Made by a program: the position numbers and the translations under genes
Assembly (NCBI GenBank): GCA_964016885.1
Contig: OZ024741.1
Span: 122,202,001 to 122,266,000, forward strand
Origin: Eledone cirrhosa
Lineage: Eukaryota
Length of the DNA stretch: 64,000 nucleotides
Reading direction: 5' to 3'
Notes under the pieces: generated by a model
Database searches by the model: none
What the model was told of the DNA's origin: nothing
Seen by the model: the letters and a program-made list of their open reading frames with translations, nothing else
Shown here: positions 12,506 through 63,569 of the stretch, piece by piece
How the letters are laid out: each line of letters opens with the position of its first letter
Position numbering within the stretch: position 1 is the first letter of the stretch

Positions 12506-13619
12506 ATGAAAAGATGGCGTAGAAAATACAATGCAACGGGAGGAAACAATAGCGCCACTGACGATGTTGCAGATGTGCAACGAAAGAACTTTGATAAACT
12601 ATATATATGTGTCTGTATCTGTATTTTTGATCGTTGGTCAGTCAATGGCAATATTGAGGACCAAATAAATTAGATTACAGATATAAAAGACACAGAAGCG
12701 AAAAGCGAAAACCAGCCAAACAGTGAGTGTGTTCTGTTATTAATTCTGGCAATATTACACAAATATGACCCTCCCCAAGTATTACAATATTTGTTTTGAC
12801 ACACGATTTCATATAAAAAACCTCGCAAAACTAATATATATATATATATATAATAAACTAAAATAAATAAGTCAAATATTTAAAATATTTAAAATATTTG
12901 ACTTATTTATTTTAGTTTATTTTACATTACTCAGGGAATATTTATAATATTCCCATTCTACAAATTACACAGCCCAGTGAAATCAAGAGAAAAATCAAAG
13001 AAAAGAATTTTATTGATAAATTCAAACCCAAGCTAAATGAACAATAATAATGCGTAGGCGTATTACTTCTACTATGACTATGACTACAACCATGTCGACT
13101 AAGACCACTAACAACAACAACAATAATAATAATAATAAAAGTGATGTTGATGGTGATGATTACTAGAAAATGCTATTTTCATCATTTCTAAAAATAGCTA
13201 AACAATTGATGCTTTGGATAGGATCAATTAGTGGTCGTTAAACATGCTCAACCAACCGTGACGCCTAAACCAATCAGCTTTAGTAATTCAGTGAAACTAC
13301 ACACCGATTGGTCGAAATACACTTTGCAAGATTTAGCATTCTGGAGCCACTTTTCACTGTATATAAGGTACAAAATTTACCCATCTCATTACAGTTGAAA
13401 ATTGCAAACTTGACTGTCACCACACATTATGAACCTGAAGATTGCGAAAGCATGAAAGTACTTGTTCAATTAACACTTAACATTTAATATTCTATCATAC
13501 TATTTCATTATAATACCATTATAAATTTTAAAGGATTGTAAATAAAACGAGTAAATCAGACAAAGTTGGAATTCCTCTTATTAATATAATCTTCTATACA
13601 CAATCATACACACCCGTGT

Positions 13620-19116: not shown

Positions 19117-19439
19117 CAAAATTTAGTACAGCATTATCGAAGCTCTGGTTGTAGCCAAGCTAACGAATGCAGTCGGGGTGTACAGCGAAGCACTCAATAA
19201 GGTATATTACCTTAGAGTTATAACATTACGTTTAGACAGCTTTGCAAATTGAAGACAGCGACCGATAGACGAGCCGTAGTGACCAAAGCGACGAAAAAAA
19301 CTGAACTCAGGATAATATATATATATATATATATATATCTTCTCTCTCTCTTTCAATATTTTTTTCTCTCTCTATCTCAATATTTTTCCCTCTCCCTTTT
19401 ACATCTCCTTTCTTCCAACAGTTTAATTTAAATAAACCG

Positions 19440-19770
19440 TTGTGTTTTCAATTTTTCGGACACTCATTTGCATACTCACTCATAACTTTGTATCACCCTC
19501 AATAAAATATTATCTCCACTATCCAGGGAACTTCAACCGTTAAGGTTGTCTTTTTTCCGGGTATGTCAATATTGATTTATAAAACAAATCTGTATTTTAT
19601 CTGATGAAAGCGCACCATAATTTGCCTTGGTTGCCCTTGAAATATATATAATAAAATAATTATGGTTTTATAAATATAGTTTCCATTTATTAATATATTG
19701 AATATTTACTCCACTAAAATGTTGAGTGCATTATATCAGTTATAACAATTTTTAAGCTTGTTGAATCCCA
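19440..19770 (+). mobile_element. Solo Penelope-like pseudo-LTR / 3' end (family H1)
   Basis: Closely similar to 62060-62320 and, inverted, to 60490-60685; carries a hammerhead; bounded by (TA)n. Confidence 0.8.
19593..19658 (+). ncRNA. Type I hammerhead ribozyme (family H1)
   Basis: tattttat-CTGATGA-aagcgcacc..ggttgccctt-GAAA-tatata-TA-ataaaata: 8-bp stem I, full core, palindromic mini stem III, predicted cleavage after 19650. Confidence 0.85.
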
Positions 19771-20537: not shown

Positions 20538-20670
20538 TATACTAAACTCGTTCTATGGACTGAGTGCTCTTACCCTTGGATATTTCTACCAAACTTTTAC
20601 TACAGTTCATATATATATATTTATATGTTAAAATACAAATTAATAAAATAGATGTTCTTTTGATCAATTA

Positions 20671-20725
20671 TATTTTATTATACATATTTCGGATGTACAA
20701 CAGTACATCTTCATCAGATAAAATA
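20671..20725 (-). ncRNA. Type I hammerhead ribozyme (family H1b)
   Basis: Minus strand: tattttat-CTGATGA-agatgtac tgtt gtacatcc-GAAA-tatgta-TA-ataaaata. Confidence 0.85.
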
Positions 20726-21001
20726 TAATGATACATGACATACCCTGAGATATTAAATGGTTAAGATTTAATCAATGACTACCTTGATTAAATCTTAACC
20801 ATTTAACATCTTAGGGTATGTCATGGCAGTATCGGTAGAGAGTCGGACGCCATGCTTTCTGGCATAGTTACGTCCCTTTACAGTCTGAGTTCAAATCCTG
20901 CCGAGGTTAACTTTGCCTTTCATCCTTATGGGGTCGATAAAATAAAGTACCAGTAATGTACTGGATAATTGCTGGCCTTGTGCCTAAAGTAGAAACAATT
21001 A

Positions 21002-21056
21002 TATTTTGTCTGATAAGGATGTACTGTTGTACATCCGAAATATGTATAATAAAATG
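21002..21056 (+). ncRNA. Hammerhead motif with G8>A core mutation (probably impaired)
   Basis: tattttgt-CTGATAA-ggatgtac tgtt gtacatcc-GAAA-tatgta-TA-ataaaat. Confidence 0.7.
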
Positions 21057-21349
21057 TAATTGATCAAAAGAACATCTATTTTATAAATATTTGTATTTTA
21101 ATATTAATAACTCTGGAAAATAATTTTTTCTGGTAGAGTGCTTCCAATCTACTGTAAAAACTCATTCTCTGATATACTCATTGAATCTTGTTTAACTCTT
21201 TAATATATATTTATATATATATATATATATATACGTGTATATATATATATATATGTAAAGAATATATATTGCCAGAATCATTTCTGATTTTTGCGTTTCG
21301 CTTCGCCTTTCCTGCCCGCCGAAAATGCGATTCTCACTGAACCTTTATT

Positions 21350-25598: not shown

Positions 25599-25737
25599 GT
25601 GAGTATATTTAAATCATTTCTTTATGTGCGTAAGGTTAATCATATTATACATTCTCAGAATACCATTAACAGATAAAATAAAATGATACATGACATACCC
25701 TGACATCTACTATGTCAGGATATGTTATGTATCATTT

Positions 25738-25804
25738 TATTTTATCTGATGAGGACGTACTGTTGAAGTTAACTCAGTATCTCTGAAATATGTATAATAA
25801 AATA
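25738..25804 (+). ncRNA. Type I hammerhead ribozyme (family H1b) in the intron, sense to the LRP gene
   Basis: tattttat-CTGATGA-ggacgtactg..cagtatctct-GAAA-tatgta-TA-ataaaata; preceded by a fold-back at 25670-25748. Confidence 0.8.
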
Positions 25805-25843
25805 TAATTGATCACAAGAATATCTATTTTGTTAATATTTTGA

Positions 25844-25873
<30 letters not shown>

Positions 25874-34305: not shown

Positions 34306-34416
<111 letters not shown>

Positions 34417-34758
34417 CTTCAAAATATTAATAGACATTCATGTGATCAAATATATTTTATTATACATATTTCATATTATACATATTTCAACAGTGCGTCC
34501 TCATCATAAAATCTAGAATAAAATATATTTGGTTACATGAATGTTTATATTTATTAACTCCAGAACACTCCTACTGTAGACTGCTTATAATCTATTGCGA
34601 AACTTTATTCATTGATTAATTCATTGAACCTTATTAAAATTTTGATTATATATATATATATATATATTTATTTATTAAAATAACAGATTAAAGTTTAAGC
34701 AAAGAATCGCTGCTTTCACCCTTAACGGGATCTTTGGATTTTAGTCTTGAAATTTATT

Positions 34759-37081: not shown

Positions 37082-37125
<44 letters not shown>

Positions 37126-37129
<4 letters not shown>

Positions 37130-37520
37130 ATATTAAATAAATGGAAACTATATTTATAAAAACATATTTATTCTATTATATATATTTCAAGTGTACCAAC
37201 ACTTACAAAAATACAAAGTTTGTTTTATAAATATTGACATTACCAGGAATAGGATCTTAACGGTTCAAGTTATTCCTGGAATAACTTGAACCGTTAAGAT
37301 CCAATTCCTGGTTATGTCAATATTTATAAAACAAACTTTGTATTTTATCTGAAGAGAATGTACCAAAGTTTTGGTACCCTTGAAATATATATAATAGAAT
37401 AAATATGGTTTCATAAATATAGTTTCCATTTATTTAATATCATTGAATATTATACTCCAGAAATCTTGTTGAGAGCTTTGAATCAGTTATAAACATTTAT
37501 ATTTGTTGAATTACCAACAA
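37126..37520. mobile_element. Fold-back pLTR pair (family H1)
   Basis: Arms symmetric about ttcc-t-ggaa at about 37277; the left arm has a deletion of the ribozyme core; (TA)n on both sides. Confidence 0.85.
37341..37401 (+). ncRNA. Type I hammerhead ribozyme (family H1)
   Basis: tattttat-CTGAAGA-gaat gtaccaaa gt tttggtac cctt-GAAA-tatata-TA-atagaata. Confidence 0.8.
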
Positions 37521-37621
37521 ATTAAATATCCATTTTGCCTATATATATATATATATATATTAGAAAGTGAGGTTTTTTTTACAAAATGAAAAATAACCGA
37601 GGTGTCCTACACGAGTGAAAG

Positions 37622-43525: not shown

Positions 43526-44672
43526 GTGAGAACACTTCCCTTATTATACTCCATACTTTAGTTACGGTGTTAAATGCAGAATAAGTAAAATTTTATTTTA
43601 TTATTTTACTCATTAGTCTGAGGTCATCCCGAGGCAGAGTCATGAAAATATTTTTTCGATCATAACCAAGCCAGACGACTTATTTATCTTTATATATTGT
43701 CAACGTATGCCCCCCCCCCTCCACGCACACACACAAACGCACACACAGATAAACCTACGGACACACAGTCACAGGGACGGAACTTCGAATGGTAACGGAA
43801 ATAACTGCAACTTAAAAATCGTAATATTTGCCGATTGAATAATAACTGTCTAGATAACATAGTTTGTGAATGCAAAGTAAAAACGAATAGTAAGTATTAT
43901 AGTTATATTGGTGCAACTTCCATTAGATTTAAGGAAAGGTGGTACAACCATGGCCACTCAGGGCCGTCAGAACTGATTTGGTCGCTTAAAAATTAAAATG
44001 TCGAATACTTCCTTTCTTGGCAAAAACTCTTACACGCTTTTCCATGCACAAATGCATCTATATCTAAAAGGTGTGACCTCTGTACCACAGAGATTCTCCA
44101 CATCATAAACAATAGACATAACATTATAAATAAATGGTCGGAAATTTTTAGTTCTTGTCTGCACAAAATAAGCAAGACATTTCATAGGGTATTTAGTTAA
44201 AACGTAAATAAAGTTAAATAAACTATGAAATAAATAATTCAAAATTCGTTTATATTTAGTTACATTATAACTTCAGCATCTATGAATAAATATCTAAAAT
44301 TTGAAATAGTATCTAAGTGAATTGAATCTAGCATAAAAGGAAAACATAGACTAACAGTCCATACATGCTTCCCTTTGAACTAATTGACCAATCCTGTAAC
44401 CTGATACCCTAGCCAGTTCACAAACAGCAATGCCAAATGTAAGATATATCTCCCACTCATACATGATCGACTGCGTGAAGCCTTTTCAGGCATATGCTGG
44501 CCAGTCGCCGAAGTGAATAACTCGTGTGACCGGTTTCATATTAACGGATATTTACAACTTCTGTGGGTTTTATCTGAAGGGAACACGTTCGCAGATGTTA
44601 TACAAAAGCCATATGTCTTTGAAATACGTATAACAAAATAAATAGGGATGGCTAACGTAACCGTATAACTTG

Positions 44673-60235: not shown

Positions 60236-60444
60236 ATTTTGAGATAGAGTGTCCGTGCTGTTTGCTCTGATCTGATTAGTTTTGGGAATTCTACCTGTTT
60301 TTATGTTAAAAAAGTGGCTCCAATTTGCAAAAATTCTTGTGGTCAAAACAATTTTGATTGGTCGGTAGAGGTCATGTGAATGTAAAAAATTGATTTTGCG
60401 CCAAGACTGTTTTTATGTTAAAAAAGTGGCTCCAGCAAAAATTC

Positions 60445-60486
<42 letters not shown>

Positions 60487-60616
60487 GAGATTATATTTAA
60501 TTTGTTGGGATTCAACAGCTAAAAATATTTCATAACTGATATAAAGCACTCAACAGTTTAGTGGAGTAAATATGCAATATATTAATAAATGGAAACTATA
60601 TTTATAAAGCCATATT

Positions 60617-60682
60617 TATTTTATTATACATATTTCAAGAGCCACCAAGGCAAATTATGGTGCGCTTTCATCAGATAAAATA
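60617..60682 (-). ncRNA. Type I hammerhead ribozyme (family H1)
   Basis: Minus strand: tattttat-CTGATGA-aagcgcacca..tggtggctctt-GAAA-tatgta-TA-ataaaata. Confidence 0.85.
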
Positions 60683-60685
60683 CAA

Positions 60686-60957
60686 TACAAATGTTCTTTT
60701 ACGAATATTAGTAAACAATCTTCACCTTCGCTATCTAACTTACTATGGGACCTGAAATCAAAGAACATTAACTATTCTTTACTTTGGTTATCTCCAAAGC
60801 TCCTTCATACACTGCTTTATCCGAAAATTGCGCTCTTTGTATCGAAGAAATATTCTTTATACTAAAAAATAAGAACTCTGTTAATTTAAGGAATAATTTA
60901 TTCAGTTCTTGCAAACATCGTTTAAATTCAATTTTTAAATATATATATAAAATGTAA
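60686..60957 (+). pseudogene. C-terminus of a Penelope-like GIY-YIG endonuclease (one frameshift)
   Basis: YKCSFTNISKQSSPSLSNLLWDLKSKNINYSLLW / VISKAPSYTALSENCALCIEEIFFILKNKNSVNLRNNLFSSCKHRLN..*; fits the LS..W.LK...W.I...Y..CxLCxxE..IL..N.R....S.C.H pattern. Confidence 0.75.
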
Positions 60958-62212
60958 TATAAAACTTATCTTTTTTACATAATTTCTTCTATATCCATAT
61001 ACGATTCATATACTTAACTTATTTTCTATTATCTCTACTTCACACATATATATTACTACACCTATCGATAGATAATTAAATTCCCTTATATGACTGCTTG
61101 AAACTCCTTTAAAGAAAAAAGATTTTCTTGATAAACTTACTGAAGGGTTTAAGAAAATCTTTTGAAAATTCCTTTGAAGGATATATAAAAAAAAATATAT
61201 TTTTATATTCTTATATTTTTTCAAAGTTTTTAATATATATCCTAATGTTTATATATATGTGATAAACATAGGGTTTTTTTTCTGTGTATGTGTGGAGCAA
61301 CCTATGGTTTATGCTTTAAATATATTCTTATGGAAAATGTTTGTGCTTTATGCTTTAAATATATTGTTATGAAAGAATTTTAAAATGTTATGAATTTTAA
61401 ATGTTATAACTTTATAGCAAGTAAATTTATAAATTTGTGACTTCGTATAAAATAACAAGGTTCATGTTCTAATTACATTCTTAAGATAGAAAATTTAACC
61501 TTTTAAATTCTTAACTTTATAGCATTTAATCCTTACAGTCATCTGAGTTATTAATAAATCACTTATAACTTCTTTACGCTCCTTTACTGTTATTTAATAC
61601 AAATAAGTGGTTATTCTTTTGTAAACTCTCGGAAAATTTTTCAATAAATTTAGAATTATTTGGATATTTAAATTTTATACTTATAAATTTTTGACTTACA
61701 AATAATATTAATGTATATTTTTAATAATTTATAATCCTTAACATACACATTTAAACTAATTATTAAATTATTAATTAAACCTTTAATCAAATTTTTTCAA
61801 CCTATCATTATAAATAGTATAATTAGAACATAACGAATCCTACTTCATTAACCCTCCATGCTATCCTCATTTCTTCCGCTTTCCTCTCACGTATACATAC
61901 TTACGCTGTATTTGTCCTTTATAATATTTTCTCTCACTTAAATATAATCACGCTCTCCTCTTCCACTGCTAAAAAATATATATAATTTATTCCTTCTTTT
62001 TCTCTTTCTTTCTTTTTTCTCTCTACCTCACAATATCACCTTCTTCCAACCGTTATCTTTTAAAACCTCTCGGACACTCATTTGCATACTCAATCATAAT
62101 TGTCTATAACCCTCAATAAATGTAATATCTCCACTATCCAGGAAGCTCCAACCGCTAAGGTTGTCTTTTTTCAGGGTATGTCAATATTTATTTATAAAAC
62201 TAATCTGTAATG

Positions 62213-62278
62213 TATTTTATCTGATGAAAGCGCACCATAATTTGCTTTGGTGGCCCTTGAAATATGTATAATAAAATA
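62213..62278 (+). ncRNA. Type I hammerhead ribozyme (family H1)
   Basis: tattttat-CTGATGA-aagcgcacca..tggtggccctt-GAAA-tatgta-TA-ataaaata. Confidence 0.85.
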
Positions 62279-63159
62279 AATATGGTTTTATAAATATAGT
62301 TTCCATTTATTAATATATAGTATATATATATATACACACCATTCATCTAGAGTTATTCCCCTTAGATTAGTCTGAAGTAACATTACTTGCGAAGGTAGAT
62401 CAACGGGGATTAACTCTAAGTGTTTGAAATAGTTCTTTCCCCTGGAATACTGATGCTGATGAAAGTTGTACTATAAATGTTATTTGGACGTAGTGAGTTA
62501 TAATTTTTAGCCTGTCACTCTCTAATACGACAAACGTATAATCAAAGTTAAGTTCTCCAGCTGTGACCACATCGTCGTATTTTAGAGAAATTTATGAGGA
62601 GCACGTCCAACATCTGTATGATGATAGATAAATTTATCTGCGGTTTTTACCAGGTCGAGTAACAATCTGAAGTCTTCCTATTCCATTAAAAATCTAATCC
62701 CAGTTCTAATTCTCACATCCATCCATACATACATGTACACTCACAAATATACCCATAATATTTTTATATATTTCATTGAATGTCTTTTATAATACTAACA
62801 GAAAAACCACCCTTCGCGTGGTTTTCTGCTGGCTTGTGTTATGTGCCTATTGATATTATACGCAATATAAACGTTATGATATAACGATGCAAATATATGA
62901 ACGTTTATATAAGCGATATAATATAGTGTCCGTTACATTATAACCGGAAGTGTTGTCACTTGAAAATGTTAAAAGAAGTGATTCTTAAAATAAGCAATCA
63001 TTATATATATGAATACTTATGTTTAATCAACAGCTACGAAATTTAGTACATAAATTATGTAAAATTCATTCATTATATATTCAAAGTAATCCAACTTATT
63101 ATACTAAAGGCATAACAAAAATATGTTCAGGACACAATCCCGTACTCCTCTCTTTGTAA

Positions 63160-63332
63160 TATAATTGTTTCTACTTTTGGCACAAGACCAACAAACCAGT
63201 ACATTACTGGTACTTTATTTTATCGACCCTTGTAAGAATAAAAGACAAAGTTAACCTTGGAGGGATTTGCATTCAGGACGTAACTCTATGGTGTAAAGCA
63301 TGGCGTCCGACCCTCTACTGATACTGCCAATC
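63160..63332 (-). mobile_element. SINE family A copy
   Basis: Reverse-complement match to the family consensus. Confidence 0.8.
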
Positions 63333-63569
63333 TACTGTGTTTGCGTGTGTGTATATATACACACACATATATACAGTATATATATCTATATATATATATA
63401 TATATACACACACACATATAAATATGTACGTCAATACTCATCTTTTTCCATTTATCTGAGGGTTCTAAACCCCATTATCAGGCTAAAATTCCTTTAGTCA
63501 AAAATACGGTGAAAGCTATTCTATTTTCTAATTTCAAACCTGCTCACTGTTTCAAAACATACTTACTTG

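Follow-up and report, generated by a model that had tools for sequence, protein, structure and literature searches.

In the accessible text of PMC8557442, Penelope-like retrotransposons of the Hydra clade have a C-terminal nuclease, an RWK motif, DKT, a CxCx5C linker and hammerheads, and insert into (TA)n. Their nuclease carries CxxC and CxH around a conserved E and N, and a length generally below 3 kb is a descriptive trait of the clade (PMC8557442). The Naiads described in the same text have an N-terminal nuclease, and the canonical hammerhead is absent from them. Transcription of Penelope starts inside the pLTR (PMC8557442). The available part of PMC11167929 describes a Poseidon element of Anolis carolinensis, PAc, whose protein is predicted to be dimeric and cuts and extends both strands of AT-rich DNA. 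Synthesis of PAc cDNA begins at two internal positions of the RNA, which delimit the tail seen in the genome, hammerhead cleavage is not needed, and the start of reverse transcription is reported to be non-homologous to the target (PMC11167929). The study left the later steps unvalidated, as far as its accessible text goes. Minimal hammerheads of Penelope-like elements (PLEs) with a short stem III are possibly dimeric, according to the open part of PMC4209133.

The window is a stretch of 64,000 nucleotides of Eledone cirrhosa DNA (contig OZ024741.1, positions 122,202,001 to 122,266,000), in which positions 60484-62320 form a single insertion within (TA)n. A preliminary description had read this insertion as an inverted pLTR, a truncated ORF and a forward pLTR with both ends in (TA)n, and the layout is borne out; the start is 60484 rather than 60490. 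The left target tract spans 60448-60483, inside which a target-site duplication is not readable, and the right tract spans 62321-62334. To the left of the tract, 60290-60447 holds an imperfect direct repeat of ~35 nt. The motif at its end mirrors the long end of the element, so that a short palindrome spans the tract. The inverted pLTR arm (60484-60689, minus strand) terminates at the site that we call the long end site (60484) and is colinear with the 5' UTR of a full-length copy, L081. Its outer ~90 nt (60484-60574, minus strand), the interval between the short and the long end site, are the ‘tail’, which in full-length copies is 5' UTR upstream of the ATG. The arm contains a type I hammerhead motif with a minimal palindromic stem III (60617-60682, minus strand), assigned by motif pattern and with cleavage as a prediction only. 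The two arms meet head to head at 60687-60689 with 1-3 nt of microhomology. The forward arm begins with the last ~90 codons of a C-terminal GIY-YIG endonuclease (60687-60957, plus strand) that retain CxxC, E, N and CxH and have a fold similar to I-TevI. Next comes an AT-rich 3' UTR (60958-62132, plus strand; 76.5% AT), which runs for ~1.18 kb up to the pLTR boundary, slightly more than the ~1.1 kb first given for it. The forward pLTR (62133-62320, plus strand) terminates at the short end site (62320), as arm comparison indicates. It contains the second type I hammerhead motif (62213-62278, plus strand), with a cut predicted after 62270 by hammerhead convention. Both hammerheads lie exactly where they had been placed. 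The window copy thus has a long end on the minus strand and a short end on the plus strand, and its arms are 90.8% identical across 141 nt.

The frameshifted reading frame of the preliminary description is real. Its two pieces, 60683-60787 and 60775-60954, match a natural longer copy in tblastn with 77% and 83% identity (joint E 2e-36), and a 4-nt deletion after 60787 breaks the endonuclease frame. The CKH near the end of the frame is also present, but the stop (60955-60957) lies 12 residues beyond it and not directly after it. The copy had been counted as a member of an autonomous lineage; it is itself a dead fragment, non-autonomous, 5'-truncated and frameshifted.

The family to which this fragment belongs is abundant. 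A 36-nt hammerhead word has 2168 exact matches in the genome against 0 for its reversed control, so the matches are not due to chance. Used as a query against the animal's own genome, the ORF piece drew 1486 candidates. Of these, 40 were scored, and apart from the window itself they have 87-95% identity. Hydra-clade elements are therefore able to reach thousands of copies within one animal genome. As the preliminary description had supposed, longer copies link this pLTR to a reverse transcriptase (RT). L081 consists, in order, of (TA)n, a short inverted tail piece, a pLTR with hammerhead, 5' UTR, ORF, 3' UTR and a pLTR, the unit measuring ~3.9 kb from hammerhead to hammerhead. Its open frame of about 741-743 aa lies directly downstream of the pLTR and upstream of the 3' UTR. 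Natural ORFs of 741 and 742 aa have a single-ORF organization with the RT first and the GIY-YIG domain last, and the 3' UTR of the family measures 1.2-1.4 kb. Because the L081 frame differs from the rest of the family in the RT catalytic motif and in the linker, its protein is probably inactive despite the open frame. In L081 (3330-3495) and L095 (3330-3492), a predicted long stem in the 5' UTR surrounds the long end site and ends immediately ahead of the ATG; such a stem may position the second start of reverse transcription. Sister Hydra families (L091, L092 and L094-L099) have frames of 562-816 aa from stop to stop that are ~77% identical and carry Asn-rich linker expansions, features that suggest recent activity. 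A 127-aa query gave 14287 first-look candidates, 150 of which were scored.

The clade assignment is based on the protein. A natural 569-aa piece has 275 homologs among 5034 candidates, the best of them 42% identical and nearly all unnamed. Members of its Atlas cluster carry PF01541 in 31% of cases. Pfam gave no match above the cut-off for the proteins P0001, P0123 and P0124, with RVT_1 matching a homolog only, below the cut-off, and a PDB sequence search with the family proteins gave no significant match. The model of the 569-aa piece (pLDDT 86) matches reverse transcriptases over residues 1-317, with telomerases on top (Z 14.3, rmsd 3.2, 222 aligned) and tied with other RTs. Foldseek returned only polymerase folds for this model, and the nuclease became visible after separate modelling. 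The C-terminal domain modelled alone (pLDDT 91) matches I-TevI (Z 9.7, rmsd 2.2, 88 aligned), EndoII (7.8) and UvrC (6.7); Foldseek gives the same order, but with E>0.2. The earlier recognition of a Penelope-like element with a GIY-YIG ORF agrees with this result. RWR (37), DKT (118-120), CxCx5C, YVG, CxxC and CxH are present in the three proteins scanned, in which Cx2-5CxxC was not found, and RWK and RWR alternate among homologs. The linker of P0123 contains a 6-aa deletion that P0001 and P0124 do not have. Aligned by eye, the motif blocks correspond to the Hydra alignment in the accessible part of PMC8557442, and CCHH was not found in the nuclease in this alignment. Given the Hydra signature as defined there, the CxxC..E..N..CxH motif pointed out previously is the Hydra signature. 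The endonuclease (EN) is C-terminal to the RT, the Hydra arrangement, and not N-terminal as in Naiads. The pLTRs, the inverted 5'-truncated copy and the one-ended tail, all features of EN-bearing Penelope-like elements, are present as well. The length departs from the Hydra type, L081 reaching ~3.9 kb rather than <3 kb owing to its long 3' UTR. The element is almost certainly a Hydra-clade Penelope-like retrotransposon, and its family is apparently uncatalogued within an already described clade. The main text of a 2026 octopus repeat annotation, in its accessible portion, names Penelope-like elements and does not name Hydra or hammerheads; the libraries of that annotation may already contain the family.

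The type I hammerhead motif recurs across several families with a short palindromic stem III (variants TATGTA, TATATA and TGCGCA), a sequence feature consistent with dimeric action. Rfam gave 0 matches at gathering level across the window, leaving the hammerheads unscored, and only microsatellite or chance matches within the element at E<=10. As monomers, four family-type motifs fold no better than shuffles (z -0.6 and -0.8 for the window copies), and the monomer minimum-energy structure is without hammerhead topology. Hammerhead-core motifs with other stems are found at 12558, 36393 and 55735 and in many loci, and probably come from further Penelope-like families.

Four other cassettes of the window, at 19440, 20625, 25670 and 37126, had been attributed to the lineage of this insertion. 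The attribution stands for the cassette at 19340-19770 (plus strand), a short copy of the same family with the pLTR and most of the tail (89-93% identity). The palindromic short/long cassettes at 37125-37540 and 20610-21210 belong to sister families with parent ORFs of their own. The first of these, family 2, has a pLTR of 85-91% identity, and a 49-nt word from it has 1334 exact matches. It is joined to a different ORF, with a nuclease 51-64% identical, in 3 insertions among 30 loci. Family 3, whose cassette (76-78% identity) is split by another repeat, has 43 matches and a third ORF, 44-63% identical to a sister protein. This ORF link appears in 3 of 8 stretches of 7 kb, and none was found in 1.5-kb flanks. 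The hammerhead cassette at 25670-25850 (plus strand, 75% identity) represents a further related family. A short piece at 34412-34512 (minus strand) is related to it (79% identical). At 43814-44194 (plus strand) lies the decayed remnant of a nuclease from another Hydra-type family, with 38% identity to the focal family. A short interspersed repeat occurs at 20827-21000 and around 63170-63340, and splits cassettes elsewhere too, for example in L174.

The ends of family copies fall at two sites. Among 120 segments from 60 loci taken by position, 58 end at the short site, 53 at the long site ~90 nt away and 9 elsewhere. Both sites map to the 5' UTR of full-length copies, in the interval between hammerhead and ATG, and each stands just before an ATAT-like run that resembles the (TA)n target. 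Paired arms are found in 38 of the 60 loci: 37 short+long, including 2 adjacent sister-family pairs outside the focal family, 1 short+short, L174, which another insertion interrupts immediately ahead of the short site, leaving its end type ambiguous, and 0 long+long. The excess of mixed pairs (37/38 against an expectation of 0.5) has a p of 1e-10. Two sister families repeat the pattern: all of their resolved pairs are short+long (6 of 6 from 24 loci in one, 11 of 11 from 29 loci in the other), and their tails measure 93 and 96 nt. The remaining 22 of the 60 loci are without a pair, mostly as lone arms, which means either that insertion can do without twin priming or that one partner frequently disappears. 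Junction gaps mostly range from -10 to +5 nt. At five subfamily-diagnostic sites, the arms of 21 pairs are concordant in all 72 comparisons, whereas concordance between insertions is 50-64%; there is linkage among these sites, however, and gene conversion from one arm to the other could produce the same agreement. Whole-arm identity is a weaker test: in 5 of 20 pairs the own partner is the closest arm, and in 15 of 20 it is more similar than the median arm. The arms of L135, L145 and L176 contain internal template jumps that connect tail with pLTR segments. A one-ended tail on PLE insertions is already known. The literature covered, from which most subscription papers and bioRxiv supplements were absent, yielded no strict count of short+long pairs, no tail of ~90 nt, no such 5' boundary and no statement of a strong-stop origin of cassettes.

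On their other side, family arms stop preferentially at 62133. This boundary, in initiator-like context on the plus strand, plausibly marks the start of transcription. Of 75 hammerhead-bearing arms, 23 stop at 62130-62139, 34 between there and the hammerhead, and 18 further upstream. The modal stop base, A62133, lies 13 nt downstream of AATAAA (62115-62120, plus strand), by consensus a candidate polyadenylation signal or TATA-like element. Family 3 has the same boundary, 14 of 29 arms stopping within -11 to +13 nt of it. In family 2, palindromic partners and a truncated reference distort the automated mapping of 5' ends, which was left unused. Non-native junctions exactly at A62133 number 263, against 43 at the control base 62150, mostly point mutants. 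A hand count of the first 100 non-native junctions has G immediately before A62133 in 41, where the composition of the partner would predict 10-14% (p 3e-11). Among 30 G junctions, 13 were classed as templated by the partner, 9 as not templated, 2 as (TA)n plus G and 6 as other kinds; the G excess is partly due to the partner arm. The control at 62135 has G in 8 of 100 (hand count), a value biased by TAT microhomology, and both cap-G controls (62135 and 62150) are imperfect. Cap copying by other retroelements leaves an extra G. The extra G at the boundary is only suggestive of a copied cap, and a capped RNA start at 62133 is slightly favored.

With a probability of roughly 0.7, the window insertion is a 5'-truncated, frameshifted Hydra-clade copy in (TA)n whose two arms both come from one twin target-primed reverse transcription event. 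The proposed twin-priming mechanism itself is likely. The protein, probably a dimer, would nick both strands of (TA)n. The element RNA would then be primed twice, by one 3' end at its short site and by the second at its long site, perhaps aided by pairing of ATAT with (TA)n, and the two cDNAs would be joined head to head through microhomology. The PAc start without target homology counts against the ATAT-aided step (available text of PMC11167929). If the RNA starts at 62133, cDNAs would run off after ~190 and ~280 nt, and the short palindromic cassettes that are so abundant would be the product. Read-through, a tandem transcript or a template jump would be needed for arms extending into the UTR or the ORF, such as the forward arm of this insertion. 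The hammerhead, if it acts at all, would do so as a dimer or with the help of protein. A stricter version is tentative and falls slightly short of even odds: twin priming would be obligately asymmetric at two ATAT sites that mimic the target, and the cassettes would be ‘strong-stop’-like pairs of cDNAs run off the cap. If this version is true, one mechanism accounts for the tail, the inverted pLTR and the pLTR boundary of PLEs, and every insertion with two arms combines a single short end with a single long one.

Other readings concern the type of element and the origin of its arms. The preliminary description had suggested a Naiad-type element, possibly a selenoprotein. Although (TA)n targeting and inverted pLTRs occur in Naiads too (accessible text of PMC8557442), the C-terminal position of the nuclease already rules out a Naiad by domain order, and the element also has a hammerhead and DKT instead of DKA and lacks Cx2-5CxxC. 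For selenocysteine, the in-frame scan covered the codons of nine EN cysteines in 201 aligned pieces, some from overlapping loci, and TGA occurs in 1 of 641. Given this count, there is no sign of selenocysteine use in the sequences. Open frames of 569-742 aa contain no TGA at all, and Rfam SECIS models gave no match at E<=10 within the element. This suggestion can for practical purposes be dismissed. An unlikely but more serious account of the arms is that an antisense template gives rise to the inverted one through self-priming or fold-back, the tail being left by nuclease resolution of an intermediate. Both components have precedents, antisense self-priming for Penelope elements (in the available part of PMC3846280) and a nuclease-made tail (in that of PMC8557442). 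Self-priming likewise predicts arms of the same subfamily, and some junctions are indeed palindromic, at a CCWGG quasi-palindrome. However, the junctions are for the most part asymmetric. Of 38 long arms, 13 do not get beyond ~100 nt from the long site, and the short arm extends further in 30 of the 38 pairs. Unpaired arms also stop at the 62133 boundary, and PAc in vitro shows two RT start sites that bound the tail (accessible text of PMC11167929).

The boundary at 62133 also admits readings other than a cap, which together are still less probable than self-priming. It could be a polyadenylation cleavage point, as the AATAAA 13 nt upstream would allow, or the end of a short non-autonomous master. 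Family ORF pieces occur in only 6 of the 60 loci sampled by position, and short copies dominate, as expected with such a master; the junctions, however, vary between loci, which speaks against a single one. Alternatively, the template could be a retrozyme-like circular RNA generated by the hammerhead, and the accessible text of 10.64898/2026.07.22.740005 describes retrozymes as non-autonomous PLE derivatives. Yet the boundary is ~140 nt upstream of the predicted hammerhead cut, at which few arms stop, and the cassettes are inverted pairs rather than head-to-tail tandem arrays. The excess of G at the boundary argues against all of these non-cap readings. Taken by itself, the insertion is ordinary; what gives it value is that its family offers a large natural sample of PLE insertion products. 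The strict pairing, seen in three families, and the sharp 5' boundary together predict precisely where reverse transcription and transcription should start, and these predictions can be tested.

Among described systems, the family shares with Naiads a GIY-YIG domain with an RT, the (TA)n bias and inverted pLTRs, whereas Naiads in the accessible text of PMC8557442 have an N-terminal EN, CxC, DKA, CCHH and no canonical hammerhead. Selenocysteine is reported there only in some spider and clam families of Naiads. With the minimal PLE hammerheads in the available part of PMC4209133 and with non-LTR retrozymes, the family shares the type I motif and the short palindromic stem III. Unlike retrozymes, its cassettes are inverted pairs and not tandem arrays, and its hammerheads are known here as motifs. 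Poseidon PAc resembles the family in the placement of its ends: both have two internal end sites that bound the tail, near the ORF start and downstream of the hammerhead, and an AT-rich target (PMC11167929, accessible text). PAc belongs to another clade, and its start sites lie inside the ORF at an AC-rich stem-loop, whereas those of the window family lie in the 5' UTR beside ATAT. The same accessible text reports no strict short+long pairing or 5' boundary. The described members of its own clade, Hydra, include Hydra-1_Obim, Penelope-13_HM and Penelope-1_NV in the available parts of PMC8557442. They share a single ORF with the RT followed by GIY-YIG, RW[K/R], DKT, CxCx5C, CxxC and CxH around E and N, a pLTR hammerhead and a (TA)n target, and Penelope-13_HM likewise carries a 5'-truncated inverted copy (accessible supplement of PMC8557442). 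Hydra-1_Obim (2507 bp), the sole cephalopod member in that supplement, differs clearly by eye in its protein blocks and hammerhead, which marks the present family as a distinct one. Against the clade as described in its accessible text, the window family has RWR in place of RWK, a length of ~3.9 kb where <3 kb is usual, a tail of ~90 nt where 30-40 bp is usual, and thousands of copies.
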